A stretch of 64,000 bases of DNA from an archaeon (GTDB taxonomy: Archaea > Iainarchaeota > Iainarchaeia > Iainarchaeales > 1-14-0-10-31-34). How positions within the stretch are numbered: the first letter of the stretch is position 1; each line of letters opens with the position of its first letter. The DNA is taken from positions 114-64,113 of the forward strand of contig JBDRFE010000002.1 of NCBI GenBank assembly GCA_043819075.1, given 5' to 3'. A program made the translations under genes and the position numbers. Below the pieces are notes generated by a model, which was not told the origin of the DNA, did not search any database, and was given only the letters and a program-made list of their open reading frames with translations. This document shows positions 15,125-61,566 of the stretch, piece after piece.

Positions 15125-15156
15125 GAGAACAGCAAAAAAAGACAAAAGTGAATTAA

Positions 15157-42610: not shown

Positions 42611-42716
42611 AAATATTTATAGTTTGAATTGTTTTTATTGTTATTGTTTTTTTGTTTTACCTTTCAGTTTGATTTAAATTCTTTTAAGTCTTTGAATATA
42701 TTATTGGTTTGTTTTT

Positions 42717-44138
42717 ATGTGCGGGATTATCGGAATCATCTCCAAGCAGGACGTTCTTTCTGACGTATTCATCGGAATGCTTTCCTTACAGCACCGCGGC
42801 CAGGATTCTGCGGGAATACTTTCTTTTGACAAAAAAATGAAGTTAATCAAAAAAGAAGGCCTTGTTGGAAGCATTTTCACTGAAAAAGAATTAGCTGAAT
42901 TAAAAGCTAACACAGCAATCGGGCACACAAGGTATCCTACTATTGGCTCAGATTTTTCTTCTGATGCACAGCCTTTCATGGTTTCAAAGCCTTTTGAAAT
43001 AGGCATGGCGCATAACGGCAACATAACAAATTATTTTGACTTAAAAAAAGAGTTAAACACTAAAACGCATTGTGTTTTGTCTTCATGTGATGTTGAAGTT
43101 GTTTTGAATGTTTTTGCCCAGTCTTTGCCTGAAAAATTTTCTGTTGAAGCATTGTTTGATGCAGTCAAAAAAGTTTTTGGCAAAGTAAAAGGTTCGTATT
43201 CTGTTGTTGTATTGATAAAAGACAAAGGCTTGCTCGCCTTCCGTGACCCTCATGCAATAAGGCCTCTAATAATGGCAGAAAAAGAGGTTAATGGAATAAA
43301 ATCTGTTGGTTTTGCTTCTGAAAGCCTTTCTTTGACTTCAACCGGCTATAAATTAATCAGGGACATTAATGCAGGAGAAGCAGTGTTTGTTGATTCAAAC
43401 CTTAACATTGTTTCAAAAATTTTAGCAAATGAAAAACCTTCGCATTGTATGTTTGAATGGGTTTATTTTTCCGGTGCAGAATCAATTATTGACAATTTAG
43501 AGGTTTATACTGCAAGAATTAATTTAGGAAAAGAATTAGCTGAAGCATGGAAGAAAACCGGCTTGAAAGCAGATGTTGTTATCCCTGTTCCTGACACAAG
43601 CAGGACAGCTGCCTCAAAGTTAGCTGAAGAAATTAATATTCCTTATCGTGAAGGATTAATAAAAAACAGGTACATTGGAAGGACTTTTATTATGGCTTCA
43701 CAGGAAAAAAGAGAGAATGGAGTAAGGTTAAAACTTAATCCAGTGCAAAGTGAAATAAACGGAAAAAACATTATTCTTGTTGATGACAGTATTGTTCGTG
43801 GCACTACTTCAAAAAAAATCGTCAAGCTATTGAAAGACAATGGGGCAAAAAAAGTTTTCTTTCTTTCAACTTGCCCGCCGATTATTTCGCCATGTTTTTA
43901 TGGGGTTGACATGCCTTCAAAAAAAGAACTGATTGCTTCAAGGCTGTCAGTCGAGGAAATCAGAAAAGAAATTAACGCTGACTTTTTGCTTTACAATTCA
44001 ATTGATTCCTTGAAAAAAGCCTTGGAAAGGAATGACTTGTGCATGGCGTGCCTTACAGGAAATTATCCGGTTCCAATTCCAAAGCAAACTGAAGACGAGT
44101 TTGAGAAAACAAGAAAAAAAGAGCAGGAAAAGCATTAA
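42717..44138 (+). CDS. purF: amidophosphoribosyltransferase
   Basis: MCGIIGI N-terminal nucleophile Cys. PRTase domain VDDSIVRGTT. Confidence 0.9.
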   Translation: MCGIIGIISKQDVLSDVFIGMLSLQHRGQDSAGILSFDKKMKLIKKEGLVGSIFTEKELAELKANTAIGHTRYPTIGSDFSSDAQPFMVSKPFEIGMAHNGNITNYFDLKKELNTKTHCVLSSCDVEVVLNVFAQSLPEKFSVEALFDAVKKVFGKVKGSYSVVVLIKDKGLLAFRDPHAIRPLIMAEKEVNGIKSVGFASESLSLTSTGYKLIRDINAGEAVFVDSNLNIVSKILANEKPSHCMFEWVYFSGAESIIDNLEVYTARINLGKELAEAWKKTGLKADVVIPVPDTSRTAASKLAEEINIPYREGLIKNRYIGRTFIMASQEKRENGVRLKLNPVQSEINGKNIILVDDSIVRGTTSKKIVKLLKDNGAKKVFFLSTCPPIISPCFYGVDMPSKKELIASRLSVEEIRKEINADFLLYNSIDSLKKALERNDLCMACLTGNYPVPIPKQTEDEFEKTRKKEQEKH

Positions 44139-44142
44139 AGAG

Positions 44143-45117
44143 GTGCTTGTGTTGGGTTCAGTAAAAGATTTAACTGTATTAAAAAAGGCTTCGGAAAAAA
44201 ATTTTGGTGAAGGAATTTTTTCTTTTACCGATGATTACAGCGTGTTTGATTTTGGCAAAATGCCTCAGACAATTCCAGGCAAAGGCGAGTCATTGTGCAG
44301 GATGGCTGTATATAATTTTGAAAAAATAGCTGAAGCAGGAATTAACACTCATTTTGGGGACTTTGTTTCTCCAAACAAAATGAAAGTTAAATTAGTCCAA
44401 GTTATTTTTCCACAGGAAAGAAAGTTAACTGAAAAAGACTCTAATTATTTGATTCCATTGGAAGTTGTTTTTCGTAACATGCTTCCGGAAGGAAGCTCTT
44501 TGCTTGCAAGATTCAGGGAAGGAAAAGCAAAGCCGTCTGATTACGGATTGAAAAGCATTCCTCCGGCAAACACTTTTTTTGAAAAACCTTTAATTGAATT
44601 TTTTACAAAGCTTGAGCCTGTTGACAGATTACTTTCAGAAACAGAAGCAAAAACAATGAGTGCTTTAACTGAAAACCAGTTAAATGAAATAAAGTCAATT
44701 GCCTTGAAAGTGAATTCTTTTTTAAACAAAAAAGCTTTTTCTCTTGGTTTAGTGCATGCTGATGGAAAAATTGAATTAGCTTTTTCTCCTGAAAGAAAAT
44801 TAATTTTAGTTGATGTTTTTGGCACTTTAGATGAAAACCGTTTTTTGTTTAATGGAGTTCATGCAAGCAAGCAGATTGCAAGAGACTATTATTTGACAAC
44901 TGACTGGGGTAAAGAGCTTTCTGAAGCAAAAAAATCAGGCAAGCCAAAAGAAGACTGGCCTGTGCCGCCTGATTTGCCTTCAAAGCTTTTGGAATTGATT
45001 TCAGAAATTTATTCTGCTACAGCACAGGAATGGATTAATGAAAAATTCGCTTCTGCCAGGCCGTTAAAAAAAGTTATTGTTGAATACAAAGAATTAAAGG
45101 AAAAAAACAAGTGGTAA
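44143..45117 (+). CDS. purC: phosphoribosylaminoimidazole-succinocarboxamide (SAICAR) synthase
   Basis: GSVKDL..FSFTDDYSVFDFGKMPQTIPGKGESL...KIAEAGINTHF...LEVVFRN aligns with E. coli PurC (GKAKTVY..FRNDTSAFDGE..KGMVNN..KLAEAGIPTQ..VECVVRN). Probable GTG start at 44143 with AAGAGG 5 nt upstream, directly after the purF stop. Confidence 0.75.
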   Translation: MLVLGSVKDLTVLKKASEKNFGEGIFSFTDDYSVFDFGKMPQTIPGKGESLCRMAVYNFEKIAEAGINTHFGDFVSPNKMKVKLVQVIFPQERKLTEKDSNYLIPLEVVFRNMLPEGSSLLARFREGKAKPSDYGLKSIPPANTFFEKPLIEFFTKLEPVDRLLSETEAKTMSALTENQLNEIKSIALKVNSFLNKKAFSLGLVHADGKIELAFSPERKLILVDVFGTLDENRFLFNGVHASKQIARDYYLTTDWGKELSEAKKSGKPKEDWPVPPDLPSKLLELISEIYSATAQEWINEKFASARPLKKVIVEYKELKEKNKW

Positions 45118-45132
45118 ACCTTTTTTTTTGTT

Positions 45133-45555
45133 TCATTTTTTTGGCCTTATAATGCTTGTTCTTTTAGGTTGGTTCAGCCTGATGTGTTCCTTTCTTCCAA
45201 GGGGTTTTGGTTTGGATTTTTTTTTGTATTTAAACGGTTTGGTTCTGCGGTCTCTCATGAATACACTGACAATTTTTTGCCTGCCAGACACTGTTTTCTT
45301 TTTGCCAGCCACTTTTACCCTGTAGCCTGCAGGAGCCTCAATGTACTGGATTCCTTTAACAAGCACTCTCCTGCCTATAGTGCCTTTTTTCACGCCTTCT
45401 TGAAAGCGTTTAAAAGGAATTTCAAAAACTTTTTTTCCCGCTGTTTTTCTTTTTGATTTAGGAGGGTTAACCCTTCTTTCAATGTGCTGTTTTGGGTCAA
45501 ACACAGAATGCTTTCGCGAGTTAAACGCAATTTTTTTGGGTTTTCTCATAATCAA
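45133..45555 (-). CDS. small basic protein (possible RNA/ribosome-associated), hypothetical
   Basis: 140 aa, very K/R-rich with a central beta-rich segment (GRRVLVKGIQYIEAPAGYRVKVAGKKKTVSGRQKIVSVF). No confident family assignment. Confidence 0.4.
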   Translation of the reverse strand: MIMRKPKKIAFNSRKHSVFDPKQHIERRVNPPKSKRKTAGKKVFEIPFKRFQEGVKKGTIGRRVLVKGIQYIEAPAGYRVKVAGKKKTVSGRQKIVSVFMRDRRTKPFKYKKKSKPKPLGRKEHIRLNQPKRTSIIRPKK

Positions 45556-45616
45556 ATTAAGGGATTAGCTTTATTTAATCTATTGCATTTTATTTATATT
45601 ATTGTTTGGTGTTTTG

Positions 45617-45997
45617 ATGAAAGTTGCAATTGTAATGGGTTCAGAGTCGGATAAGCCAATAGCGGAAAAAGCTGAAAAAGTTTTAAAAGAAAACAAGATT
45701 CCATTTGAATCTTTTGTTGCTTCAGCTCACAGAAACCCGGAAAAAGTAAAAGAAATTGCTTCAAAAGATTTTGATGTCTTTATTGCTATTGCTGGCTTGA
45801 GTGCTGCATTGCCTGGAGTAATTGCTTCGCATACAAAAAAGCCTGTGATAGGCGTTCCAGTTTCATCCAAGTTAGGCGGATTGGATGCATTATTGGCTAT
45901 TGCCCAGATGCCTAAAGGCGTTCCAGTTGCATGTGTTGGAATAGATAACGGAGAAAACGCTGCCTGGCTTGCAATCCGAATCCTTCAATCAAAATAA
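45617..45997 (+). CDS. purE: N5-carboxyaminoimidazole ribonucleotide mutase / AIR carboxylase catalytic subunit
   Basis: [13 protein letters not shown] and [22 protein letters not shown] match PurE. Confidence 0.85.
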
Positions 45998-46087
45998 TTA
46001 AAATAACCTTCTTCTATTATTATTTATGTTGCAGGAAATTAAGCCAGTTTTATCTGATTCTTTTTTTAGTTTCTTCGGGGTGTTTAA

Positions 46088-47617
46088 TTGATTGCAGTAA
46101 TTAATTTTGGTGGCCAGTACTGCCATTTAATTGCAAGAAAAATAAGGGAATTAGGCGTTAAAGCAGAAGTTTTTCCTAACACTATTACCGCAGAAGAACT
46201 TGTTTCAATTAAGCCTGCCGGAATAATCCTTTCAGGCGGGCCTTCAAGCGTTAACCAATCTAATGCCCCGAAAATGGATAAAAAAATTCTTGAATTAAAT
46301 ATTCCTGTTTTAGGAATCTGTTATGGGTTGCAGTTAATTGCTGTTTTTTTAGGCGGAAAGGTAAAGCCAGGCCAAACAAGAGAATACGGAAAAAACATTA
46401 TTTTAGTTAAAGGAAATGACCCTTTGCTTAAAGGCTTGAAAAAAGAGCAGGTGTGGCTGTCGCATTTTGATATAGTTGAAAAAATTCCTGAAGGATTCAA
46501 AATTTCTTCTTCAACTAAAACCTGCCCTGTTTCTTCAATGTTTTCTTCTTCAAAAAAATTTTTTGGATTACAGTTCCATCCTGAAGTGCATCACACCCCG
46601 AAAGGAAAAAAAATCCTGTCAAATTTCTTGAAACAATGCAAGGCAAAAAAAGACTGGAAAATCAGTTCTGTGATAAAAGAAGTTGAAAGCCAGATTAAGG
46701 CTAAAGCAGGAAAAGAGAAAGTGATTATGGGTGTTTCAGGCGGAGTCGATTCTTTGGTTGCATCAGCTTTGTTGCATAAAACAATTCCAGGGCAGTTGTT
46801 TTGTGTTTTTGTTGACAATGGCTTGATGAGGAAAAACGAAAAGCAGTACATTGAATCCTTGTATAAGAAAATGGGTTTCAGGCATTTTTTTGCAGTTGAT
46901 GCATCAAAAGAATTTGTTTCTGCTTTGAAAGGAGTTTCTGATCCGGAAGAAAAAAGAAAAATTATCGGCCACACGTTTATTTCTGTTTTTGAGACAAAAG
47001 CAAAAGAATTAGAGCAGTCTTTTGGAAAAATTTCTTTTTTAGGCCAGGGAACAATTTACCCTGACAGGATTGAGTCAGCTGAACCATCTAAAACTGCTTC
47101 AAAAATTAAATCCCACCATAATTTGTCTTTGCCTGAAACAATGAAGTTAAGTTTGATTGAGCCTTTAAGGGAATTCTATAAAGACGAAGTAAGGCAGATT
47201 GGAAGAACGCTTAAAATTCCTTTAGAGTTTCTTGACAGGCATCCTTTTCCAGGCCCTGGCCTTGGAGTAAGGATTTTAGGCGAGGTATCAGAAGAAAAAC
47301 TTGTTATTTTAAGGCAGGTTGATTTTATTTTTATTGAAGAATTAAAGAAAAACAATTTTTACAACAAAACCTGGCAGGCGTTTGCAGTGTTATTTCCAAT
47401 TAAGGCAGTCGGCGTCAAAGGAGATGAAAGAAGTTATTCGTATGTTGTCTGCCTGCGTGCAGTTAATTCAGTTGACGGAATGACAGCTGACTGGACTAAA
47501 ATCCCGAATGATTTGCTGGAAAAAATTTCTTCAAGGATTTTGAATGAAGTGCCTGAAGTTGGAAGGGTTTTGTATGACATTTCCCAGAAGCCGCCTGCAA
47601 CAATTGAATTTGAGTGA
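46088..47617 (+). CDS. guaA: GMP synthase (glutamine-hydrolysing), fused GATase + ATP-PPase (bacterial-type single polypeptide)
   Basis: IAVINFGGQY GATase N-terminus, SGGVDS PP-loop and a C-terminal dimerisation domain. TTG start. Confidence 0.9.
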   Translation: MIAVINFGGQYCHLIARKIRELGVKAEVFPNTITAEELVSIKPAGIILSGGPSSVNQSNAPKMDKKILELNIPVLGICYGLQLIAVFLGGKVKPGQTREYGKNIILVKGNDPLLKGLKKEQVWLSHFDIVEKIPEGFKISSSTKTCPVSSMFSSSKKFFGLQFHPEVHHTPKGKKILSNFLKQCKAKKDWKISSVIKEVESQIKAKAGKEKVIMGVSGGVDSLVASALLHKTIPGQLFCVFVDNGLMRKNEKQYIESLYKKMGFRHFFAVDASKEFVSALKGVSDPEEKRKIIGHTFISVFETKAKELEQSFGKISFLGQGTIYPDRIESAEPSKTASKIKSHHNLSLPETMKLSLIEPLREFYKDEVRQIGRTLKIPLEFLDRHPFPGPGLGVRILGEVSEEKLVILRQVDFIFIEELKKNNFYNKTWQAFAVLFPIKAVGVKGDERSYSYVVCLRAVNSVDGMTADWTKIPNDLLEKISSRILNEVPEVGRVLYDISQKPPATIEFE

Positions 47618-49216
47618 TTATTTTATTTTTTTTAATTTTTTTATTACTTTTTCTTTTCCTATTGCGGTAATTAACTGCCCTAATTTCGGCCCTCTTTCTT
47701 TTTTAATTAAAAACAAATAAAATTCTTTGAATAATTCCCCTGCAGGAATATTTTTTTCTTTCCCTATTTCATAGATTTTCTGCTGGATTTCTTCTGGGTC
47801 GCTTGTTTTTTCAAGCACTCTAATTGTTTCAGAAAAGATTTCTTTCATTTTGTCTGGGGCTTCATGAATTTCTTCTGAGAACACAATCCTGTTTTCTTCC
47901 GGCGCAAATTTTTCCAGCCAGTTTTTTGAAAGCTTAATTCTTTCCTTTAATGCCTCTGCTTCTTTTTTTGTTTCAGTGCCTTTATTCATTTCATTTAATT
48001 TTTCAATTAATTCTTTTTCCTGGTAAAACCCGTTCAAGAAAGCGCATAAAGCGTAGTCTGCTTTCAATGAAATTAATTCTCTGTTATTAACTTTTACTGA
48101 ATCAAAATATTTTTTGTTTTTCAGCTGTTCAATTTCATTCCCTGTTTTTGTTTCAGCGCTTTCAGTTACTCTATCTAATTCAAGTTCAAGCAATGGAACG
48201 TCTTTCCATTCAAAGCTTCTTGTCTTCATTAATCTTTTCATATACAAATATTTTAGTGTTTCTGGCCTTGCAACTTTCAGCCAGTCAGCCGGATAAACCA
48301 CGTTACCTAAAGAAGCGCTCATTTTTGTTCCGCCAATTACAATGTGTTCATAAAAAATAGGCTCTGGGTGCGGAAAATCCAGTATTTTTTCGCATATTTC
48401 TGCGTTAACCCAGAAAGCAGAGTTTTTGCTTTCATATTCTTTTCCTGCTCCTTCTGAACAGACTTTCCAGTTCTTCCATTGCGCTGCCCACTCGCTTTTC
48501 CACACTAATTTTCCGTTTGCTTTCTTTAAATCTGATATTCCTTCAAAACCGCATCCTTTTGCAGTGAATTTTTCAAAAGCATAATCAATGCATTTGTAAT
48601 TGATTTTTGTGCCATCCACTTTTGTTATTGCAGTTGTCTGCAGATTCCCGCATTTTTCGCATATTGGCTTCCAGACACTCCAGTTTTTTCCTGTTTTGCT
48701 TCCCTGGACTTCTTCAATTATTTTTTTTACTTTTTCAGCGTTTTTCACTAATTCTATTGCGCTGTCGGTAAAGCTTCCTTTTTTGTATTCTTTTCTCATT
48801 GAATAAACTTCTGGTTCAATTAAGAGAAAGTCTTTGAATACTTTAAGGAATTCTTCTGTGAAGTGCTCTGCATAGCTTTTATGGCATCCGAATGGATCCG
48901 GAACATCTGACACAGGAAAGCCGATGAATTCTTCAAATTTTTTTGGAACCCCTTTAGGTATTTTCCTTAATGGATCCATGTCTTCTGTTACATAAATGAA
49001 TTTTGTTTTGAATCCTTTTTCTTCTAAAGCCCTTGCTTCTGCTTCGCCTCTGATGATGTCTGACAATCTTCCGATATGCAGCACCCCGGATAAAGAAGAA
49101 GAGCTTTTTACTGTCCAAGTTTTTTCTTCTGGAATTTTTTTGTCAATGAAATGAAATTTTTTCCTGTTAATTATTTTTTCTGCTATTTCGTCTGCCCAGA
49201 AAACCCATTCAGCCAT
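47618..49216 (-). CDS. lysK: lysyl-tRNA synthetase, class I (archaeal type)
   Basis: N-terminal WADEIAEKI...SGVLHIGRLSD (HIGH-like) and KMSASLGN (KMSKS). About 530 aa, typical of LysRS-I. Confidence 0.75.
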   Translation of the reverse strand: MAEWVFWADEIAEKIINRKKFHFIDKKIPEEKTWTVKSSSSLSGVLHIGRLSDIIRGEAEARALEEKGFKTKFIYVTEDMDPLRKIPKGVPKKFEEFIGFPVSDVPDPFGCHKSYAEHFTEEFLKVFKDFLLIEPEVYSMRKEYKKGSFTDSAIELVKNAEKVKKIIEEVQGSKTGKNWSVWKPICEKCGNLQTTAITKVDGTKINYKCIDYAFEKFTAKGCGFEGISDLKKANGKLVWKSEWAAQWKNWKVCSEGAGKEYESKNSAFWVNAEICEKILDFPHPEPIFYEHIVIGGTKMSASLGNVVYPADWLKVARPETLKYLYMKRLMKTRSFEWKDVPLLELELDRVTESAETKTGNEIEQLKNKKYFDSVKVNNRELISLKADYALCAFLNGFYQEKELIEKLNEMNKGTETKKEAEALKERIKLSKNWLEKFAPEENRIVFSEEIHEAPDKMKEIFSETIRVLEKTSDPEEIQQKIYEIGKEKNIPAGELFKEFYLFLIKKERGPKLGQLITAIGKEKVIKKLKKIK

Positions 49217-49292: not shown

Positions 49293-50036
49293 TCAGCTTT
49301 CATCGTAGGCTTCTTCTATTCCGTGGATTTTGATTCCGTCTTTTGTTATTGTTAATGGATGCAAATCTTCTGAATGTTTTGTTGAACGCATTTTCCTTAT
49401 ATGCACTGTCCTGTTTGTTCCGCCGCCGCCTATTCCAGAGTAATGCAGTACTATTACTCCGTCAACAACGTATTCTTCTACTTCGTATCTGCCGAATTTT
49501 GCTGTCCCTTCCTGTATTTCAGAGGTCATGATTGATGTAACGCCTATTCTCATCAGCATATAGCTTAATTTGAGTATTGCTTTTCTTGTCTCGTTTTCGT
49601 TGTCAAAATTGAATCCTAATGCAGGAATTGAGTCAATTACAACTCTTTTTGCGCCGATTCTTTTTGTTACTCTCATTATTTCAAGCAATAGTTTATCCAA
49701 GTCAAATCCTGTCATTGGCAGAGAAAATTCTTCTTCTGATGGCATTCCAATTCTTGCAACGCTTCCGTCTATTATGCTTAACAGTTTTTTTTCCTCTAAT
49801 TTTCTTAAATCCCAGCCAAATCTTGTAACATCTTCTCTTATTAGTTCAGGTCTTTCATCTAAAGTAACATAAATTCCTGGCTCATTGTATTTTACTGCCC
49901 CGTTGTAAATGTATTGCATTGAAAAAATTGTTTTTCCTGTTCCGCATGCACCTGAAACCAGCACAGCCCTTTTTTCCGGAAAGCCTCCTTCAAGCAGTTC
50001 ATCTAATCCAGTTATTCCTGTTTTAACTCTTTTCAT
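49293..50036 (-). CDS. KaiC/RadA-like RecA-superfamily ATPase
   Basis: GITGLDELLEGGFPEKRAVLVSGACGTGKT Walker A in a KaiC-domain context. 247 aa. Confidence 0.8.
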   Translation of the reverse strand: MKRVKTGITGLDELLEGGFPEKRAVLVSGACGTGKTIFSMQYIYNGAVKYNEPGIYVTLDERPELIREDVTRFGWDLRKLEEKKLLSIIDGSVARIGMPSEEEFSLPMTGFDLDKLLLEIMRVTKRIGAKRVVIDSIPALGFNFDNENETRKAILKLSYMLMRIGVTSIMTSEIQEGTAKFGRYEVEEYVVDGVIVLHYSGIGGGGTNRTVHIRKMRSTKHSEDLHPLTITKDGIKIHGIEEAYDES

Positions 50037-50106: not shown

Positions 50107-51927
50107 TTAAACCCTGCTTACCTCTTTCACTCCGTCAATTCCCTTTATTTTTTCAATTATTTTTGTTATTGTTTCAGGTTTTTTTGCCTGTAGCGTGAAC
50201 TTGCATGAAATATTTTTGTTTTCAACTTTTGCTTCAGTTGAAACAGCTTTTGCTTTCATTGAAGCTATTGCATCAAGTATGTCAGTCAAAAGATTTATTT
50301 TTTCTATTGCCTCAATTTTTATTTCAGTGCTCGTCTCCGTTTTCCCGACCATTCCCCAGTTCAAAGGGATTATTTTTTTCTTGTTTTCCCTTAATAAATT
50401 AGGGCAGGTTTCTCTGTGGACAATCAGCTTTCTTTTGGTTGTTTTTATTGCAAAAATTTTGTCCCCTGAAATCGGGCTGCAGCATTTTGCAATCTTTATT
50501 GAGTCAATTATTTTTTTTCCTGTTTTTTCAGGGATTTTTTTTGTTTTTGTCACCTCTATTTTAAGGAAATTCATTATTCTTGCTTTCGCTTTCTGGCTTT
50601 TCACTATTGACAGCCATTGTTTTTTTGGAAACTGTTTTTTTGAGGTGATTATTTCAACTAAGTCCCCGTTTTCAAGCTTGTGGTCAAGCTTTACCAGCTT
50701 GCCGTTGACTTTTGCTTTTTCGCAGCTGTTGCCAAGGCTTGAATGGATTGCATAGGCAAAATCCAATGGAGTTGAATTCAACGGAAGCTCTATTATTTTG
50801 TCTTTTGGCGTTAGAGTGAAAATTTTTTTTTCTTCAAAGCTTAAGTTAAATGTTTCAAACATTTTTTCTTTTTTGTTTTTTCTCTGCCATTCAATCAGTT
50901 CTCTTGCCCATGTAAGCTTTCCGTCAAACTCCTTGTCTTTTTTCAGCTCCTTGTATGCCCAGTGAGCAGGCATTCCTTCTTCTGCTTCAATATGCATTTG
51001 CATTGTCCTTATTTGTGCTTCAAATACTTTTCCGTCAGCTGTTTTAAGGTCTGTGTGAATTGACCTGTAATTATTTTTTTTTGGGCTTGCAATGTAGTCG
51101 TCAAACGACCCAAGCAATGGCTCGTGCATTGAATGAATAAAGCCAAGTATCAGGTAGCATTCTTTTATTGTGTTGCAGATTATCCTTACTGCTGTAAGGT
51201 CACGCAGGTCTTTTAGCCTGCATTTTTTTTTCTTCATTTTTTTGTATATTCCGTAAAAGTTTTTTGTCCTGCCGATTATGTTTGCGTTAATTCCCTCTTT
51301 TTTCAGTTTTTTCCTTATTTCTTCAACTATTTTTTTTAGTTCTGAATCCCTTTCTTTCCTGGTTTTTTTCATTGCATTTTTTATGGCATTGTATGCTTTT
51401 GGCTCTATTATTCTGAATGAAAGATCTTCAAGCTCCCAGTTTATTTCTTCTAATCCGAGTTTTTGGCTTATCGGGCAATAGACTTCCATAACATTTTTTG
51501 CGAGCTCTTCATTGCTTTTCGTGTTCCTGAGTTCAGCCAGTTTGGCTGAAAGAATTATTATTATTGTTCTGATGTCTTTTGTTGTTGCAAGAATTATTTT
51601 GCTTAATGTTTCTGGGCTGAAATTCTTGTTCTGGGATTCAATTTTTTTTATTTTCCTTGTTTCCATCACAAGCTTTTGTGCATCTTCATTTAGCTCTTTC
51701 AGTATTTCTTCTTCTTTTAATCCGGTTTCCCAAAGCAGTGCAGCCGAAATTGTGTTTTCTTTTAATCCAAGAGAAACAAGAGTGAATGCGGTGTTAAGCG
51801 CGTTTGAAAGCTGTTTTCCTTCAAGGTGGTTTTTTGCGAGTTCTGTGGCTTTTTTTATTGTCAGCAAATCAGTGTCTTTTTTCAAGGATTTAAACAAGTC
51901 ATTTGCTGAAACATTTTTGTATTTCAT
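50107..51927 (-). CDS. RelA/SpoT-homologue (long RSH) (p)ppGpp synthetase with degenerate or truncated HD domain, TGS and ACT domains
   Basis: Synthetase motifs GRTKNFYGIYKKM, DLTAVRIIC, DYIASPKKNNYRSIHT, EAQIRTMQMH, AEEGMPAHWAYKE. TGS-like PLDFAYAIHSSLGNSCEKAKVNGKLV...NGDLVEIITS. C-terminal ACT-like fold. The N-terminal 150 aa lack the HD dyad. Confidence 0.8.
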   Translation of the reverse strand: MKYKNVSANDLFKSLKKDTDLLTIKKATELAKNHLEGKQLSNALNTAFTLVSLGLKENTISAALLWETGLKEEEILKELNEDAQKLVMETRKIKKIESQNKNFSPETLSKIILATTKDIRTIIIILSAKLAELRNTKSNEELAKNVMEVYCPISQKLGLEEINWELEDLSFRIIEPKAYNAIKNAMKKTRKERDSELKKIVEEIRKKLKKEGINANIIGRTKNFYGIYKKMKKKKCRLKDLRDLTAVRIICNTIKECYLILGFIHSMHEPLLGSFDDYIASPKKNNYRSIHTDLKTADGKVFEAQIRTMQMHIEAEEGMPAHWAYKELKKDKEFDGKLTWARELIEWQRKNKKEKMFETFNLSFEEKKIFTLTPKDKIIELPLNSTPLDFAYAIHSSLGNSCEKAKVNGKLVKLDHKLENGDLVEIITSKKQFPKKQWLSIVKSQKAKARIMNFLKIEVTKTKKIPEKTGKKIIDSIKIAKCCSPISGDKIFAIKTTKRKLIVHRETCPNLLRENKKKIIPLNWGMVGKTETSTEIKIEAIEKINLLTDILDAIASMKAKAVSTEAKVENKNISCKFTLQAKKPETITKIIEKIKGIDGVKEVSRV

Positions 51928-52048: not shown

Positions 52049-52783
52049 ATGCCGGTAATTGCAGGAAACTGGAAGATGAACAAAAGCATTCCAGAAACAA
52101 ACGATTTTTTCAAACAATTCAACAAACTTGTTTCTAAAACAAAAAACAAAATTGTTGTGTTCCCTTCTTTTCCGTGCATTCCTGCTGCAAGAAAATCTGC
52201 TTCAAAAAAAATTTTTATCGGAGCACAAAACATTTTTTTTGAGGATTCAGGCGAATTCACTGGCGAGGTTTCTTTAACCCAGCTGAAAGGATTATGCGAT
52301 TTTGTTGTTTTAGGGCATTCTGACAGAAGGCAAAAGTTTTCTGAATCAAGTGAATTAATCAACAAAAAAGTTAATTCTGCTTTAAAGCACAATTTTAGTG
52401 TTATTTTGTGTGTTGGGGAAACTTTTAGTGAAAGGGAAAGCAATCTCACAAACACTGTTTTAAGCGAGCAATTAAGTGATTCCCTGAAAGGAATTCCTTT
52501 TTCTCCGAATCTTTTGATTGCTTATGAACCTGTCTGGGCAATTGGTTCTGGGCAGACTGCAAAACCAAAAGACATTTTCCAGGCGCATTCTTTTATTAAA
52601 AGCCAGTTAACCGAGCTCTTCGGCGAAAAAGCAAGCCAGATAAAAATCCTTTATGGCGGAAGCGTTAAGCCTGAAAACATTAAAGAAATTTTTTCTGTTG
52701 AAAACATTGACGGGGTTTTAGTCGGTGGGGCATCGCTTAATCCTGTTTCTTTTGCAAAAATAGCTAATTATATTAAATCATAG
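52049..52783 (+). CDS. tpiA: triosephosphate isomerase (bacterial/eukaryal-type)
   Basis: PVIAGNWKMN, and a YEPVWAIGSG-type active-site region (AYEPVWAIGSGQTA). Start taken at MPVIAGNWKMN. Confidence 0.85.
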   Translation: MPVIAGNWKMNKSIPETNDFFKQFNKLVSKTKNKIVVFPSFPCIPAARKSASKKIFIGAQNIFFEDSGEFTGEVSLTQLKGLCDFVVLGHSDRRQKFSESSELINKKVNSALKHNFSVILCVGETFSERESNLTNTVLSEQLSDSLKGIPFSPNLLIAYEPVWAIGSGQTAKPKDIFQAHSFIKSQLTELFGEKASQIKILYGGSVKPENIKEIFSVENIDGVLVGGASLNPVSFAKIANYIKS

Positions 52784-52818: not shown

Positions 52819-53271
52819 TTAACTGCATTTTCCAATTAATCCTTTGTCGCCTATCTGGACCAAGCCTGTAACATTTTTTGAATTGTATGTGAACATCACG
52901 TTTTTGTCAAAGCCTGCCCCAAGGTTTCCGCATGCGTTTAACGCTGTTAACTGAACAAGTTTTCTTTCTCCTGCGTTAAATGAAACGCTTGCAGCCAGAG
53001 TGCCTACTCCGTCAAACTTTACTTCAGTTAAAGTCAGCTTGTTTGCTGAAACATTTTGCACTTCCAAGTCAGCTGTTGTTCCACTGAACTTGTATTCAAG
53101 CATTGTGAAAGGCGAAGTGCTCTGCCAGTAAGCTTTTGACTGCTGTTCTGTTATGCCTCCGCTTAATCCAGGAACCCAGCCCATTACCCCGACAACAACT
53201 AATGCAATTACAATTATTACCGCAAGAATAATCAAGTATTCGGTTGTTCCCTGTGCTTTTCTTCCGAACAT
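52819..53271 (-). CDS. type IV pilin-like protein with class III (prepilin) signal peptide
   Basis: MFGRKAQGTTEYLIILAVIIVIALVVV has a short basic leader, a G/A cleavage context, E at +5 and a hydrophobic helix. Confidence 0.65.
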   Translation of the reverse strand: MFGRKAQGTTEYLIILAVIIVIALVVVGVMGWVPGLSGGITEQQSKAYWQSTSPFTMLEYKFSGTTADLEVQNVSANKLTLTEVKFDGVGTLAASVSFNAGERKLVQLTALNACGNLGAGFDKNVMFTYNSKNVTGLVQIGDKGLIGKCS

Positions 53272-53348
53272 TTTTTCCCTCCTTTTTTTTGCAAAATAAA
53301 ACAATTATGCTATCTATTTAGTCGGTTTTCATTTATATTCTTTTCTCA

Positions 53349-54356
53349 TTATAAAACCGAAATAAACCCTGAAACCAGTGTTTTGAACCCAAAAAACAAT
53401 ATCACTGATGCAATGAATATTACTGGAAAATATTTTATTCCAAGCTGGGGTTTTCTTTCAGTTAATACTCCAATGAACAGGCTTGAAAGAATTGCATTTC
53501 CGAAAAACAGCACTAAAGCCATTTTCTGCATGAAATCTGGCGTGATGAGCAGTTCAGAGCTTAGGAAGCCAACATTAATTGTTCCTGTTGTTGTTTGTTG
53601 TGCCTGAATTGAAGAAATCATTTCAAGGAATTGCACTGAAATTGACATTAAAAGCGGGGTGGCAACAATTATTACAAACAACACAAACATTACATACATT
53701 TTTGTCCCTGAAATCATTTCTTTTTTCAGTTCATCTGTTTTTGAAATATCTTCTGCACTGGCTTCAAGAATGTTTGCAAGCTTTCCCCCTGACTTCAGGC
53801 TTTCAGAGAAAAATGAAACGCTTTCGCTTAAAATCCTTGAATCAATTTTTTTTGCCAGTTCTTTCAGTGAGCCGCTGAATGATTCAATGCCAAGGCTTTT
53901 GGCTGTAACTGTTTTTATTTCTTCTGCTAAAGGGCCGAATTCTTCTCTTGAACTGCTTTTGAATGCATAAAATGGTGTCATTCCTGACCTGAGGTTTGAT
54001 GCAACTAACAGCAGGAAATCAGGCAGAACGCTTTCAACTCTTTTTCTCCTGTCATCAATCTGGTATTCTAAATGCAGGTAATAAAGGAATAAAGTTGTTG
54101 CAAAAAAAATTATGCCAAAAATTATTCCTGCAAGAAACTGCAATCCAATTTCAGTGAATTCAATGAATCTTCCAAGGCTTAAAGGCATCAAAAAACCAAT
54201 CAAAAAAAATAATACTGCAAGCATTAATCTTTTTCCAAGCCAGGTATCTGTGTCCTGGCTTATTCCTGCAAAATCTAATCTGGCTGAAACAAGTTTTCTT
54301 TTTTTTTCAGGCACCAGCTCTGAAAGCCTTTTCTGGATTAATTCAAGTTGTTTCAC
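53349..54356 (-). CDS. type II secretion system F-domain membrane protein (FlaJ/TadC-like)
   Basis: Polytopic, with a T2SSF-like cytoplasmic domain. Adjacent to the FlaI/TadA-like ATPase. Confidence 0.6.
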   Translation of the reverse strand: MKQLELIQKRLSELVPEKKRKLVSARLDFAGISQDTDTWLGKRLMLAVLFFLIGFLMPLSLGRFIEFTEIGLQFLAGIIFGIIFFATTLFLYYLHLEYQIDDRRKRVESVLPDFLLLVASNLRSGMTPFYAFKSSSREEFGPLAEEIKTVTAKSLGIESFSGSLKELAKKIDSRILSESVSFFSESLKSGGKLANILEASAEDISKTDELKKEMISGTKMYVMFVLFVIIVATPLLMSISVQFLEMISSIQAQQTTTGTINVGFLSSELLITPDFMQKMALVLFFGNAILSSLFIGVLTERKPQLGIKYFPVIFIASVILFFGFKTLVSGFISVL

Positions 54357-55237
54357 ATTATCACCTTTGGCTTCCTGTTTTTTACAAAACCAATCAATAT
54401 AACCTGAACTGCAAAGGCAAAAAAAATTGTTGCCATTACATGAATTTCACTTATGTCAGAGCCGCCCATTGAAGAAAGGATTATAAGAAAAGTTATTCCT
54501 AAAGTCGGAATTGCTGCAGCCAAAAGCAAATACATTAAAATCCATAAATTGAGTTCAGCTGAATAATTTTTTATTCCCCTTAACTGGTTTGATGTAAGAG
54601 TGTTAATTGTTGTTTCTAATGCACCTGTAATGCTTGCCCCGCTTTTAATTGAAGTTACAATCTGCCAGCAGGCTTTTTTTAAGTACTCTGATTTGGTGCG
54701 CAAAGCCATTTTTTCCAGTGCTTTTGCTTCTGGTGTTCCTGCAACAATTTCTTTTACAACTAACCGAAATTCTTTTGATACAACGCCATAATCTGCTTTT
54801 GCAGTGTTTTCAATTGCATTAAATAGCGGAACACCTGATTTTGTCTGCAAAAGCATTCCCTTTAATGCAAAAACAAGGTCCTGGTCTATTCCCAAGGCAA
54901 TGTTTTTTGAAATTATTCCAGGGTAAATTATGTGCAGGAAAAAAAATAATACAAAAAAAGCAAACCCGATTAATAAATTCACGGGAAAAACTGTTTCTAA
55001 ACTAAAATCCCTTAAAAAAATAAGCATTGTTCCAAGCAAAAAAAATACTGTTCCATAAACCAGGGCTGAAATAATTGATGCAGTAAGGTATTCTTCTGCT
55101 GAAAGAGGTATTTCTGCTTTCTTTAAATCATATTTTGTTCCTACAAAAATTTTCTGCAGGAAGTTTCCAACAAACAAAATCCTTTTATTGAATTTTTTTG
55201 CCTGTTCTGTTGAAAAAACAAGGAATTTTACTCTCAT
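54353..55237 (-). CDS. type II secretion system F-domain membrane protein (FlaJ/TadB-like)
   Basis: T2SSF domain (LKGMLLQTKSGVPLFNAIENTAKADYGVVSKEFRLVVKEIVAGTPEAKALEKMA). A 4-bp overlap with the downstream paralogue. Confidence 0.6.
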   Translation of the reverse strand: MRVKFLVFSTEQAKKFNKRILFVGNFLQKIFVGTKYDLKKAEIPLSAEEYLTASIISALVYGTVFFLLGTMLIFLRDFSLETVFPVNLLIGFAFFVLFFFLHIIYPGIISKNIALGIDQDLVFALKGMLLQTKSGVPLFNAIENTAKADYGVVSKEFRLVVKEIVAGTPEAKALEKMALRTKSEYLKKACWQIVTSIKSGASITGALETTINTLTSNQLRGIKNYSAELNLWILMYLLLAAAIPTLGITFLIILSSMGGSDISEIHVMATIFFAFAVQVILIGFVKNRKPKVIM

Positions 55238-55247
55238 TTATTTCACT

Positions 55248-56981
55248 TCAGATTTTATCCAGATTAATTTTTTTTTCTGATGCATTAATTATTGTTTCAG
55301 GGTTGCTGTAATATAATTCCATTACTTTTCCCACTTCGTTAACTGAATTAATTTTTTTTTCAGCCATCCATTCAAGGATTTTTTTTCTTTGCTGTAAATC
55401 CTTGTTTATTTCCTGTTCTGTCAGCCCTGTATGAATGTTTAATTCCCCGTAAAATTTTACCGGCTCTTCTGTTTTGTCCCATGAATCAGTTCTAGGAGAC
55501 CAGCGGTAAATTGTGTTGATTGAAACGCTTCCTTCATGAGAGCCGGTTTCAATTTCACTTATTTCTAATGTCCTTCTCTTGTTTGTTTTTCTGTCCCTGT
55601 ACTGAACTAAAACCAAATGCAGTGCTTCTATTTCTAATGCAGGAATTTCAATCGGCGGCTCTGTCAGCCTTCTAATCAATTGATAACCTGAATCAGCGTG
55701 CATTGTGGAATAAACTGAATGCCCTGTATGCATTGCTTCAAACAATACTTCTGCTTCTTTTCTTTTCCTCATTTCGCCTAAAATTATTCTGTCAGGCCTC
55801 ATTCTAAGAGAGGACATCATTAAGTCAAACATGCTTATTTCTCCAAGGCCTTCTGGGTTAGGGTTTCTTGTTGTTAACGGAATCCAGTTCCATTTAAGGT
55901 AATCAGGCAGAGTTAATTCTCTTACGTCTTCTATTGTTATTATTCTATGATAGCTTGGAATCATTGCACATAAAGTGTTTAATGCAGAAGTCTTTCCTGA
56001 AGCAGTTGAGCCTGCGACCATTAAATTCATTTCATAGTGTATTGCCATCCACAAAAAAGCCGCCATCTCTGAATTCATTGTATGCTTTTCCTGAATAAAA
56101 TCTGTTATTGTCCAGGGTTTTCTTGCAAACTTTCTTATTGTAATAGTGTTTCCTAAAGAAGAAACAGGGAATAAAGTGGAATTAACTCTGTCTCCGGTTC
56201 CTAAATGAGCATCTAGAATAGGATTTAATGTTGTTATTTCTCTTCCGACTTTTCTTGCAATCTGTGCCGCATAATTTTTTATTAATTCCTCTGATTCAAG
56301 CATTATGTTTGTTTTCAGCCAGCCGAATTCTCTGTGATAAACTGCAATAGGCGTTATAGAAGAATTTATTGCAATTTCTTCAAGCAAATCGTCTTTCATC
56401 AGCAATTCAAGTTTTCCCATTCCATACATTTCATGCAATAAGATTCCTGCAAGCTTTTCAGTTATTTTTTCCTGGTTTTCTGGCAGGTATTTCAGCAGGG
56501 TTTTGTTCACTGTTTGAATGAATTTTTTCTTTAATTTCTCGTTTTTTTCGTCTTCATCCCCTGGTTCAATTTCAATGTTTTTTGCGATTTCTTCTTTTAA
56601 TTCGTCAATGAATTTTTGTGTTGCGGAATCAATTTCATCGAATTCAACATTGTATTGGTGTGTCCTGCTTCCTTTTTCTTCTGTAATCCTTGTTTTTGCT
56701 TTGGTGTTGTCTGCATTCAATTCATATTCTAATAAAATTTTTTGCGCTTTAACAGGTATTTCAGGCCCTAATTTTATTTCTTTTTCAATTTTTATGAAAG
56801 GCTTTGACAAAACGTTTGCAGGGTAAATTACGTTCAATAACCCTGTTTTTTCCATTATTTTTGCAGTTAATTCAAGTTTTTCTTTTTCCCATCCCAGTTC
56901 AGCTGAAATTTCTTCAATTGAAAGCTTTTTTTCCCTGTTAAGGAGTTCAGCTAATTCAAGGATTTTTGTTTTTATTATCAT
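55248..56981 (-). CDS. type IV pilus/archaellum assembly ATPase (FlaI/TadA/VirB11 family)
   Basis: Walker A LMVAGSTASGKTSALNTL. Asp-box and His-box region (RIITIEDVRELTL...PDRIILGEMRKRKEA). Confidence 0.85.
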   Translation of the reverse strand: MIIKTKILELAELLNREKKLSIEEISAELGWEKEKLELTAKIMEKTGLLNVIYPANVLSKPFIKIEKEIKLGPEIPVKAQKILLEYELNADNTKAKTRITEEKGSRTHQYNVEFDEIDSATQKFIDELKEEIAKNIEIEPGDEDEKNEKLKKKFIQTVNKTLLKYLPENQEKITEKLAGILLHEMYGMGKLELLMKDDLLEEIAINSSITPIAVYHREFGWLKTNIMLESEELIKNYAAQIARKVGREITTLNPILDAHLGTGDRVNSTLFPVSSLGNTITIRKFARKPWTITDFIQEKHTMNSEMAAFLWMAIHYEMNLMVAGSTASGKTSALNTLCAMIPSYHRIITIEDVRELTLPDYLKWNWIPLTTRNPNPEGLGEISMFDLMMSSLRMRPDRIILGEMRKRKEAEVLFEAMHTGHSVYSTMHADSGYQLIRRLTEPPIEIPALEIEALHLVLVQYRDRKTNKRRTLEISEIETGSHEGSVSINTIYRWSPRTDSWDKTEEPVKFYGELNIHTGLTEQEINKDLQQRKKILEWMAEKKINSVNEVGKVMELYYSNPETIINASEKKINLDKI

Positions 56982-57023
56982 TTTTCTGCCTTCACCAATA
57001 ATACTGTTTTTTTATTAATAAAC

Positions 57024-57890
57024 CTAACTAAACTTCTTTAATTCAATTAAAGAACTTGAATTAAGATCCTGCTGAAAATAATTCAAATCAATGTCAGCAA
57101 AAACTTTTAATCCAGAATTCAGGTCAAGCTGGGGCATTACAGCCTTTAATGCAAGCAATGTTTTTTTCTGGCCAAAAGTTTTATTCCACACTCTTACAGC
57201 ATTAATTTTTCCTTCAAAACTTCCAAAATGAATTTCTATTACGTCTTCTGCACTGCCTGAAAACCTTATTACAATAACATTATCTGAAAGCGAATTAACC
57301 TGAAGGATTTCATGTTTTTCGTTAAGTGAATTCAGGTCAGAATAATTAAAGTTAACAGTTAAATCCGGGCTTGAAGTGAAAAGTGTTTCATTCACTTGAA
57401 TTGAACTCGCATTTACATTAAGGTTCAAGTCAATTGAAACTGCATTGGTGTTCCTGTTTTCAGCAAAAAATTCCGCTGAACTCCCTGCACCAAAACCATA
57501 TTCATATACTAATCCGTTGCTGAACTTAACTGGAACAGAACTGCTTATTCTTTCAGAGCCGATTTTTATTTTCGTGTTGTTTACCGCAGAATAGCTGGTT
57601 TCAGCGAATTCCTTGAATTTGTTTATTCCTGCAATTTTGCTGTATTCTGCGGGAAGGGTTTCAATGAAAGTTATTTCAAGGTTTGGTTCAATTTGAATGC
57701 TTATTTGTGTTCCCAGAATTTCGCTTAAATCAAACCCCAAATCATCTTTCACAAATTCTGCCTTAGAATACTTTTTTATGTCATTAAAAGAATAATTCCT
57801 GTCCTGTGCATTTTGCGAGTAAAACACTGAAAACAACATCATTGAAGAAAGCAGGATTATTGCGCTAAAGCTTATTATGTATCCTTTCAT
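57024..57890 (-). CDS. pilin-like/secreted hypothetical protein with N-terminal hydrophobic anchor
   Basis: MKGYIISFSAIILLSSMMLF N-terminus. S/N-rich body. Confidence 0.4.
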   Translation of the reverse strand: MKGYIISFSAIILLSSMMLFSVFYSQNAQDRNYSFNDIKKYSKAEFVKDDLGFDLSEILGTQISIQIEPNLEITFIETLPAEYSKIAGINKFKEFAETSYSAVNNTKIKIGSERISSSVPVKFSNGLVYEYGFGAGSSAEFFAENRNTNAVSIDLNLNVNASSIQVNETLFTSSPDLTVNFNYSDLNSLNEKHEILQVNSLSDNVIVIRFSGSAEDVIEIHFGSFEGKINAVRVWNKTFGQKKTLLALKAVMPQLDLNSGLKVFADIDLNYFQQDLNSSSLIELKKFS

Positions 57891-58306
57891 GCATTCACCT
57901 TATGCCATGCCTTTATTTCAGCCCAATAAAATTTTTCCTGTTCTATTACAAAAAAACTTCTTTTCACTGAAATAACTGAAATCCCTTTTTCACAGCCTTT
58001 TTTTGTTGCAGTGCTTAATGCGCTTGAATTATTGTCAAAATCAATTAAATTGATTTCAAAGCATAAATTTTGTGAAGTCTTATTTAAGTACTTCGCTATT
58101 TCATTGTTTTTTCCCTGCAGTACAGCCTGCTGGAGTTTGCTGTTTTTTTCAAGCACTGTTAAAACGTCTTCTGAAACCAGTGCAAGCTTTGCTTCGTTTA
58201 ATGAATTCAGCCTGCTTTCATTGAAATGCACTGCAATGGAAAAAAGCATTGCAAAAGCAATAACCAATGCAATTACTGCATCAACTGAAATAACAAACCC
58301 TTTCAC
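57887..58306 (-). CDS. pilin-like protein (class III signal peptide-like)
   Basis: MKGFVISVDAVIALVIAFAML. A 4-bp overlap with the neighbour. Confidence 0.5.
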   Translation of the reverse strand: MKGFVISVDAVIALVIAFAMLFSIAVHFNESRLNSLNEAKLALVSEDVLTVLEKNSKLQQAVLQGKNNEIAKYLNKTSQNLCFEINLIDFDNNSSALSTATKKGCEKGISVISVKRSFFVIEQEKFYWAEIKAWHKVNA

Positions 58307-58809
58307 CCGAACACACCTAAAACAAGTTTTCTTTCAACACCGTTTAACAAAACAAATCTTTCAATTACAACTGCCTTGGTTTCGGGCCCGGGCATAACGC
58401 CAAAAAACTTGATTTCACTTGCTGAATTCATTTCTGTTACCTTAAAATAAAAATCGTATTTCCCTAACCCAAGAATTTCTTTTATTTCACTGTAACTGCT
58501 TTGGTTTAAGTCAATAAGCTTGTCTATTTTTTTTTCATCCAAAACATTTCTTTCTTTTGCAATGCCAATTGAATTAACATTCAGGTCATTCATTAACTCC
58601 CATGAATCCGGGTCGCCTGGAGTTGAAACCAACGCCTGAGAAGCATTCAGGGTTTTTTCCTGCATCTCTGAATAAAATTCTTCTTCGTTAAGTGAATTCT
58701 GTATTAAGCCAAAAGAGCTAACTGAAATAACCAGAATAAACAATAATGCAGTTAATGCAACAATTAAGTCTGTTGTAAAAATCTGGCCTTTAGAGTTCTT
58801 CAACTTCAA
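58303..58809 (-). CDS. pilin-like protein (class III signal peptide)
   Basis: MKLKNSKGQIFTTDLIVALTALLFILVISV has a KG-Q cleavage context. Confidence 0.55.
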   Translation of the reverse strand: MKLKNSKGQIFTTDLIVALTALLFILVISVSSFGLIQNSLNEEEFYSEMQEKTLNASQALVSTPGDPDSWELMNDLNVNSIGIAKERNVLDEKKIDKLIDLNQSSYSEIKEILGLGKYDFYFKVTEMNSASEIKFFGVMPGPETKAVVIERFVLLNGVERKLVLGVFG

Positions 58810-59449: not shown

Positions 59450-59455
59450 TTAATC
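59160..59455 (+). repeat. GC-rich hairpin-dense repeat element (copy 2, about 295 bp) inserted in the pilus locus
   Basis: Hairpins ctcgcggTTTCGCCcgcgag, atacggcATAAAgccgtat, gtgcttcg...cgaagcac, cccgcTTCCGTGcggg, gcacagcTTTACgctgtgc, ggcacACCTTTGGCgtgcc. The GTGCTTCGCTTT unit occurs three times. Shares about 50 nt with 37695-37815. Confidence 0.6.
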
Positions 59456-61265: not shown

Positions 61266-61331
61266 ACAAAACCATAATTATAACAGAAAACCATTTATTA
61301 TACTTTTTGAGTTTAAAGGAAAAAATTTGAA

Positions 61332-61556: not shown

Positions 61557-61566
61557 TTAATTCAGC

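Follow-up and report, generated by a model that had tools for sequence, protein, structure and literature searches.

A long RelA/SpoT homologue with a degenerate hydrolase and no alpha-helical domain in a DPANN archaeon

Signalling by (p)ppGpp is treated as a hallmark of bacteria and plastids. The closest described systems are E. coli RelA, in which a pseudo-hydrolase is joined to an active synthetase and which is paired with SpoT, and the bifunctional Rel enzymes of B. subtilis, S. equisimilis, M. tuberculosis and T. thermophilus; the roles of the RIS and ACT domains, the alpha-helical (AH) domain and a TGS-domain histidine have been described for bacterial Rel and RelA (PMC7797070, PMC4974054). 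Long RelA/SpoT homologues (RSHs) were held in 2011 to be generally absent from archaea, with small alarmone synthetases sporadic in Euryarchaeota (PMC3153485). The first of these statements has been superseded by a 2021 study, according to which RelA/SpoT occurs in 69.0% of genomes in Diapherotrites, 41.7% in Woesearchaeota, 21.3% in Pacearchaeota and 19.0% in Nanoarchaeota, and which attributes it to transfer from Bacteria (PMC8407392). Beyond a sentence in that paper, nothing was found in the literature searched on the architecture, hydrolase state, gene context or biochemistry of archaeal long RSHs. Here we describe one of them, encoded at 50107-51927 on the minus strand of a 64,000-nucleotide stretch (the window) of contig JBDRFE010000002.1, from an assembly assigned to the Iainarchaeota (GCA_043819075.1).

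We think it likely, from the sequence comparisons set out below, that the product of this DPANN gene is a working long RSH with synthetase activity only, and that it belongs to an archaea-specific branch of short forms, most economically explained as an ancient bacterial gift. The presence of RSHs in DPANN archaea is already known, and the exact protein is deposited in GenBank, encoded on a 146,652-bp contig, as MFH1663267.1, 'MAG: TGS domain-containing protein [archaeon]'. The 2021 study gave presence and absence percentages only, and the archaeal variant itself, with its missing AH domain, clade-wide hydrolase loss and linkage to genes for a KaiC-like ATPase and a lysyl-tRNA synthetase (LysRS), is apparently undescribed.

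The open reading frame (ORF) list of the window gives the gene an ATG start and a product of 606 aa. Pfam, NCBIfam, alignment to solved structures, AlphaFold and Foldseek resolve the protein into a pseudo-hydrolase, a synthetase (SYNTH) domain, TGS, a short linker, a RIS or zinc-finger domain (ZFD) and ACT, all encoded on the minus strand. The pseudo-hydrolase has an HD_4 fold (aa 37-159, 51451-51819; PF13328, 1.3e-17, 64.4 bits against a cut-off of 27.2) and is followed by the (p)ppGpp synthetase domain (aa 219-328, 50944-51273; RelA_SpoT PF04607, E=5.5e-36, 123.7 bits) and by TGS (aa 371-428, 50644-50817; PF02824, 1.7e-20, 73.2 bits), which includes H395. A stub of two short helices and a disordered linker, defined by alignment and model, stands in place of the AH domain (50500-50643). 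Behind it lie the RIS/ZFD (aa 477-528, 50344-50499; PF28438 RelA_RIS, precomputed for this protein), with C482, C483, H504 and C508, and an ACT/RRM domain (aa 533-605, 50113-50331; ACT_4 PF13291, 3e-11, 44.3 bits). All four Pfam matches (HD_4, RelA_SpoT, TGS and ACT_4) clear their gathering cut-offs by wide margins.

When the sequences of solved structures were searched, the best matches were mycobacterial Rel (8fr8, E=2e-100), B. subtilis Rel (6yxa, 4e-93) and E. coli RelA (5e-90); the bifunctional Rel enzymes thus show the highest sequence similarity, with the same domain order. An AlphaFold model built from a 47-sequence alignment (pLDDT 83.4, pTM 0.75) matched best, by Foldseek, ribosome-bound RelA on the 70S ribosome (5IQR, E=1.2e-34), followed by B. 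subtilis Rel (6YXA) and full-length SpoT (7QPR). In this model the N-terminal domain (NTD) is all-helical and superposes on the NTDs of Rel (TMt 0.6-0.78), and the ACT domain has a beta-alpha-beta-beta-alpha-beta topology. In the sequence alignment the RIS domain corresponds to RelA residues 608-660.

The state of each motif was read from a HMMER alignment to solved Rel and RelA (8fr8, 6yxa) and from comparison across 120 homologues. The synthetase motifs are intact: G219-R-T-K-N-F-Y-G-I-Y-K-K-M, D243, D276-D277-Y-I-A-S-P-K and F-E303-A-Q-I-R-T. D243 aligns with D264 of B. subtilis Rel, where the D264G mutant is synthetase-dead (PMC7797070). R220, K222, D243, D277, Y278, E303, Q305 and T308 are invariant in 47 of 47 archaeal homologues (~36-76% identity). 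Where bifunctional Rel has RxKD (RFKD), the protein has S274-F-D-D, so that the acidic pair of the ExDD motif is kept and its Glu is replaced by S274; some members of the same clade have E-F-D-D.

The hydrolase motifs, by comparison, are gone. The His of the HP motif is replaced by N42, 'LLHDxxED' has become 'LLW66-E' with a 4-residue deletion, and 'RLHNMRT' reads 'KLAELRN' (A131-E132). The window protein is the most eroded form in the HD-degenerate clade described below. Mean pairwise identity in the HD domain is 36% in that clade as against 56% in HD-intact relatives, which indicates that constraint on the pseudo-HD has been relaxed.

The residues that read tRNA have been kept. H395 maps to H432 of E. 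coli RelA and H420 of B. subtilis Rel, the His that stacks on the 3' CCA end of tRNA (PMC7797070), and is invariant in 47/47 archaeal homologues and in 54/54 short-form representatives. C482, C483, H504 and C508 of RIS are invariant in the 47 archaeal homologues. Mean pairwise identity is highest in TGS (61%), followed by SYNTH (51%), RIS (50%) and the pseudo-HD (36%). These patterns show that the catalytic and tRNA-sensing residues of the archaeal short-form family are under purifying selection, with the C-terminal sensor module (TGS, RIS and ACT) strongly constrained; the enzyme is probably active. The original prediction, of a 606-aa long RSH with near-consensus synthetase motifs and no HD catalytic dyad, is therefore borne out at the residue level, with the EAQIRT motif and the Gly-rich loop both present.

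That prediction missed a further feature, the absence of the AH domain between TGS and the zinc-finger/RIS. Alignment to solved structures shows ~90-95 residues absent here relative to Rel and RelA. TGS and RIS are separated by 54 aa in the window protein and by 54-70 aa in all of the ~605-650-aa proteins among the 120 homologues, as compared with 136-157 aa in the bacterial ~720-aa proteins. The short forms are all without PF19296 (RelA_AH_RIS), yet keep PF28438 (RelA_RIS). In the AlphaFold model TGS (aa 368-428) is followed by helices at aa 438-441 and 445-455, a disordered stretch at 456-476, RIS at 477-522 and ACT at 532-605, with pLDDT <50 at aa 463-475 in the linker. In RelA the AH domain packs on the D-stem of A/R-tRNA (PMC4974054). 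In B. subtilis Rel, TGS alone binds tRNA unstably and TGS with the helical region binds it stably (PMC7797070), and for this reason the deletion removes a part that matters to the mechanism. Absence of AH across a whole archaeal family appears to be undescribed.

An exhaustive HMMER search of 1.84 billion representatives gave 4,126 relatives at E<=1e-30. The best 150 of these include 54 short forms (linker 52-85 aa), of which 38 are dead, 10 partial and 6 intact in their hydrolase motif set. The archaea-specific short-form branch is thus a large family, with at least 54 clusters at 50% identity. Relatives of the window protein carry the labels Candidatus Micrarchaeota, Diapherotrites or Iainarchaeum. 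A scan of reference genomes with the family alignment returned at least 79 bacterial Rel loci and one archaeal locus (L001) among the matches listed.

The relationships were then examined in a distance tree with bootstrap support, which covers 631 alignment columns and includes 48 short forms together with 34 diverse RSHs from bacteria. All HD-degenerate short forms (35 sequences) fall in one clade with 100% bootstrap, and within it the subclade of the window protein (P0001-P0011, 59-76% identical) is likewise supported at 100%. The HD-intact short forms, which keep HP...HDxxED...RLHNMRT, branch between this clade and the bacteria; the split between the bacteria and all short forms is supported by only 56% bootstrap. 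Of the three HD-intact loci checked, two are unmistakably archaeal, with genes for ribosomal protein S6e, aIF2-gamma and aIF5B beside the short form, and the third is uninformative. Given this branching order and the archaeal HD-intact forms, the hydrolase decayed within Archaea, once, and independently of the proteobacterial RelA/SpoT split. In the tree, hydrolase loss is shown as a common trait of one monophyletic archaeal clade, apart from proteobacterial RelA, and the hydrolase of this major clade was lost very long ago. Bifunctional Rel is likely to be the ancestral state of the archaeal family, and a single acquisition of the short forms is likely.

The placement bears on two claims of the original prediction. 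The description of the protein as RelA-like stands as an analogy: it shares with E. coli RelA the pseudo-hydrolase, a synthetase that is predicted to be active, an acidic xxDD in place of RxKD, the CCA-reading His of TGS, the Cys/His set of RIS/ZFD and a C-terminal ACT/RRM, and ribosome-bound RelA is the best structural match of its model. Membership of the RelA subfamily does not follow. The protein scores 339.2 bits against the RelA equivalog NF008124, whose cut-off is 728, and the tree places it in the archaeal clade (100% bootstrap) and with none of the bacterial sequences; it is 606 aa long as compared with 744 aa for RelA, and it lacks the AH domain (RelA aa 485-580). The window protein is thus judged not to be a RelA orthologue. 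From the bifunctional Rel/SpoT class (NF008303, 333.7 bits against a cut-off of 947) it differs in having lost all hydrolase residues, in carrying xFDD for RFKD and in the AH deletion. Small alarmone synthetases (RelQ, RelP, SAS) share its SYNTH fold and chemistry and are likewise synthetase-only in archaea with no identified hydrolase, but they consist of a single domain, lack the TGS/RIS/ACT sensor module and resemble the model only remotely in structure (E~1e-7). The second claim, horizontal acquisition, holds in so far as an ancient bacterial gift is the most economical origin of the archaeal short forms. The transfer is of ancient and not of recent date: the gene matches its surroundings in GC content, and its position is conserved down to homologues of ~39% identity. 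The accompanying statement that long RSHs are generally absent from archaea reflects the view of 2011.

The most likely function of the protein, by analogy with its bacterial relatives, would be that of a tRNA- and ribosome-gated, synthetase-only (p)ppGpp synthetase. Extrapolating from bacterial Rel and RelA, RIS and ACT would anchor it at the intersubunit bridge (A-site finger, uL16 and uS19, all of which are universal elements), and TGS would detect the free 3' end of uncharged tRNA. The NTD and SYNTH domains would then be released and transfer pyrophosphate from ATP to GDP or GTP, giving (p)ppGpp during amino-acid or tRNA-charging stress. With AH absent, the geometry of tRNA and ribosome would have to differ, or a partner would have to substitute. 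Translational GTPases and purine-nucleotide enzymes would be conserved candidates for alarmone targets.

If the protein makes (p)ppGpp, its removal would have to rely on something other than the RSH itself. The original prediction had suggested looking for a small alarmone hydrolase, and neither such a gene nor a second RSH was found within the window. When custom hidden Markov models for the RSH hydrolase and synthetase domains were run over all six-frame ORFs of >=50 aa from the 64-kb window, no second copy of either scored better than E=0.4. Pfam annotation of ~50 window ORFs turned up no protein of the Nudix, GppA/Ppx or HD type. At 12 homologous loci the precomputed Pfam lists, which reach 8-10 kb to either side, likewise contain no gene of the HD, Nudix or SAH type. 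In this respect the system differs from that of E. coli, where RelA is paired with SpoT.

Several observations weigh against a functional, ribosome-gated synthetase. The protein scores 490.0 bits against TIGR00691 spoT_relA, narrowly under the trusted cut-off of 499.2; we attribute the near-miss to the AH deletion, which breaks the match into two stretches. The helical region that stable tRNA binding needs in B. subtilis Rel is, by alignment, truncated in this protein. Archaeal ribosomes differ from bacterial ones, and docking of the protein is predicted only. Neither the window nor the surroundings of the 12 homologous loci yielded a hydrolase partner, and a synthetase without a hydrolase is normally toxic in bacteria (PMC3153485); that an enzyme with synthetase activity only should have persisted for so long is the chief puzzle. 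The RSH also evolves faster than every neighbour in the same genome pairs (39-67% identity as against 50-94%). In comparison with locus L081, for example, identity is 67% for the RSH, 94% for the KaiC-like ATPase, 81% for PurF, about 76-77% for LysRS and 75% for GuaA. Such fast evolution suggests a less constrained or changing role.

The gene order in the window is tpiA (divergent), then RSH, the KaiC-like ATPase and a class I LysRS, followed by guaA and a purine-biosynthesis cluster. The KaiC-like ATPase (49293-50036, minus strand; 247 aa; PF06745, 261 bits) lies 70 bp downstream of the RSH on the same strand and is of the archaeal single-domain type represented by ArlH and TIGR03877 thermo_KaiC_1. 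It scores 192.7 bits against the latter and falls under every equivalog cut-off, and we therefore regard it as a member of an unnamed subfamily. The literature searched makes no mention of its being linked to an RSH.

Conservation of the pair was examined from both sides. From the RSH side, ten loci of the HD-degenerate clade were sampled (the window, L001 and L081-L088 were counted, with L091 as the tenth), and RSH is followed by KaiC in the same orientation, mostly with a 45-110 bp gap, in nine of them; in L091 an ABC-transporter/CARDB insertion parts the two genes by 4.4 kb. From the KaiC side, a metagenome scan with a KaiC alignment found an RSH upstream of 13 of the 16 orthologues with >=62% identity and enough upstream DNA. 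The corresponding count was 0/5 at 54-57% identity, where the upstream genes are FMN_dh/Glu_synthase-like or NFACT-R, and none among ~50 more distant KaiC-like genes. Across loci whose RSHs share only 39-67% identity, the KaiC-like proteins share 62-94%; where the RSH is at 45%, the KaiC-like protein is at 83%. No KaiC neighbour was seen at the HD-intact loci checked.

The genes between the pair in L091 (9897-15045) and in L100 encode an ABC transporter (MacB/FtsX) and a CARDB-domain protein. The same ABC/CARDB genes lie upstream of KaiC in L101 (4583-7869) and L106, where the flanking sequence available contains no detectable RSH. In that sublineage the RSH may have been lost or displaced.

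The class I archaeal-type LysRS is the next gene downstream of KaiC (47618-49216, minus strand; TIGR00467 lysS_arch, 303 bits). A LysRS of one kind or another occupies this slot almost everywhere. It is a class I lysS_arch in L081, L082, L085 and L087, and a class II lysS_bact (518-637 bits) in L084 (12741-14222) and L088 (10710-12197). A third kind found in the slot is a very divergent class I enzyme, ~29-31% identical and on the opposite strand; the LysRS of L085 lies at 10650-12269. The slot looks like a case of in-situ non-orthologous displacement next to a tRNA-charging sensor. On the other side, tpiA (52049-52783, plus strand) is divergent from the RSH across a 121-bp intergenic region. 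It is of bacterial type (TIGR00419, 157 bits, as against only 31.5 bits for the archaeal PRK04302), and its true start is the ATG at 52049 (MPVIAGNWKMN), not the listed TTG at 51968. Members of the window subclade have a triosephosphate isomerase (TIM) of the bacterial type, and L084 (9267-9935) and L085 (7208-7888) one of the archaeal type (PRK04302, 241-254 bits); the TIM slot is a second in-place replacement beside the pair. Since both flanking genes have been replaced in place, the RSH-KaiC pair can be regarded as the stable core of a changing neighbourhood.

The block of RSH, KaiC and LysRS abuts a purine cluster at 39919-47617 (purA, purB, purF, purC, a probable purE and guaA). PurF, PurA and GTP-synthesis enzymes are classical targets of (p)ppGpp in bacteria. 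The cluster is also present at the RSH block in L081, L082 and L084 but not in L085-L088; being limited to the window subclade and L084, it was not used as functional evidence, and the association is suggestive but not conserved. Within the cluster, a frameshift in a run of nine A (~42037-42045) divides purB (adenylosuccinate lyase; 41275-42610, minus strand) into two ORFs that overlap. L082 encodes the orthologue in one piece, a protein of 446 aa with 72-81% identity to each half; the split reflects either a mistake in the assembly or a gene that has recently become a pseudogene.

The contig is genuinely archaeal. It carries an archaeal signal recognition particle (SRP) RNA (63103-63379, minus strand; Rfam RF01857, 123.8 bits against a gathering score of 96.5), TFE (TFIIE-alpha) with aTrm56 (35097-36196, minus strand; PF02002, 64 bits; PF01994, 153 bits), an archaeal-type D-aminoacyl-tRNA deacylase (DTD2), the archaeal-type class I LysRS and, by Pfam, a class III signal-peptide pilin with T2SSE and T2SSF. 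The archaeal context, the KaiC-like ATPase on one side and the bacterial-type tpiA on the other are all as originally described.

Other features of the contig are recorded here as observations in their own right. The pilin belongs to a type-IV-pilus-like locus at 52819-62436 (minus strand), with two T2SSF, a T2SSE ATPase and five ORFs without a Pfam match (57024-61265); the locus ends with a second, different KaiC-like ATPase (61567-62436, 289 aa), possibly ArlH-like. In L081 and L082, too, this locus lies beside the RSH. Bacterial MEP/DOXP isoprenoid genes (dxr, ispD, ispF and dxs) are clustered at 12819-18054 (plus strand). The MEP pathway is already known for a Woesearchaeota clade (PMC8204110), and its occurrence here bears on the DPANN lineage, as the labels on relatives of the RSH are Micrarchaeota or Diapherotrites. 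A block of genes for carbohydrate storage and gluconeogenesis at 865-12894 encodes a GalT/HIT-like protein, a eukaryote-type glycogen synthase (PF05693, 441 bits), GH57, GT4/starch synthase, a PfkB kinase and pyruvate phosphate dikinase, a notable metabolic capacity for a DPANN genome. A tyrosine recombinase (Phage_integrase; 31851-32711, plus strand) lies ~2 kb from tRNA-Met (34841-34916), and a LAGLIDADG-domain ORF (38113-39048) directly follows tRNA-Lys and tRNA-Leu (region 37621-39048); the two may be remnants of mobile elements or homing endonucleases.

Against this background, two explanations that would deny the gene a long archaeal history can be weighed together. That the RSH is a bacterial contaminant or sits in a chimeric assembly, and is not archaeal at all, has a negligible probability in our view: the source is a metagenome-assembled contig and several neighbours are bacterial-type, but archaeal markers stand on both sides within 15 kb (TFE/aTrm56 at 35 kb, the class III pilin at 52.8 kb and the SRP RNA at 63 kb). 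More than 20 contigs that are independent of one another, drawn from JGI, NCBI, Logan and ENA samples, show the same arrangement, and for this reason contamination or chimerism was excluded for practical purposes. Recent horizontal transfer into this genome, as an accessory, island-borne bacterial gene, is slightly easier to entertain and still very improbable. Bacterial-type genes are frequent on the contig (tpiA, the MEP pathway), and there is the integrase at 31851-32711; however, the GC content of the RSH interval is 34% in a window that is uniform at 33-38%, relatives with an RSH only 39-45% identical hold it in the same slot between TIM and KaiC, and the protein lies within a deep archaeal clade with 100% support. 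Recent transfer was rejected on GC and synteny.

Explanations that leave the gene archaeal but alter its role have more to recommend them. The RSH might no longer make (p)ppGpp: it could bind ribosomes or tRNA as a regulator whose active site is vestigial, or it could be an enzyme that yields (p)ppApp or pGpp or pyrophosphorylates the 3' end of tRNA, as some toxic small synthetases do. Its fast evolution relative to its neighbours and the lack of any hydrolase partner in the 64-kb window would fit such a role, as would the record of archaea studied so far, in which (p)ppGpp has gone undetected; the alarmone was measured in Haloferax and Sulfolobus, which have no RSH, and none was found (PMC8646023). 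We nevertheless consider it improbable: all catalytic SYNTH residues are invariant in the 47 homologues despite identities of ~36-76%, which argues for retained catalysis, and both sequence and fold are nearest to genuine (p)ppGpp-making long RSHs, with small alarmone synthetases matching only at E~1e-7. Somewhat more plausible, though still unlikely, is a single functional module of RSH and KaiC-like ATPase, perhaps with LysRS, in which the ATPase regulates the RSH, is regulated by it, or replaces control by AH or the hydrolase. The pair is kept on the same strand, 45-110 bp apart, at nine of the ten RSH-side loci, an RSH precedes 13 of the 16 close KaiC orthologues, and the pair outlasts rearrangements that flip or replace genes on both sides; since HD-intact short forms have no KaiC neighbour, the linkage also coincides with hydrolase loss. 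On the other hand, KaiC orthologues at 54-70% identity occur without any RSH (L101, L106, L111 and L113-L116), the 4-kb insertion parts the pair in L091 and L100, and the literature searched holds no link between the two. The far greater conservation of the KaiC gene would indicate a function independent of the RSH, and the adjacency may be an inherited position, as wider synteny (SerRS-Trm56-TFE) is also retained. The 70-bp spacer holds elements of both kinds, a Shine-Dalgarno-like GGGG ahead of the KaiC ATG and a TATA-like TTATAATA that would permit independent transcription. We would give the same low weight to the broader proposal that Iainarchaeota/Micrarchaeota-type DPANN run a genuine archaea-adapted stringent response, in which an AH-less, hydrolase-dead RSH would read uncharged tRNA on archaeal ribosomes, make (p)ppGpp, which is not known to have been detected in any archaeon, and form a module with the KaiC-like ATPase (perhaps also LysRS), the partner supplying the lost control or turnover. 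A functional synthetase-only long RSH of ancient bacterial origin remains the reading that we prefer.

If the gene is an ordinary transferred Rel, it is still a well-annotated but uncharacterised member of a known family. If these archaeal RSHs are active, it would have to be asked how a cell copes with a synthetase that has no cognate hydrolase, and their AH-less architecture would make them a natural minimal RelA with which to ask what the AH domain is for. Active enzymes of this family would also extend alarmone signalling to the Archaea.

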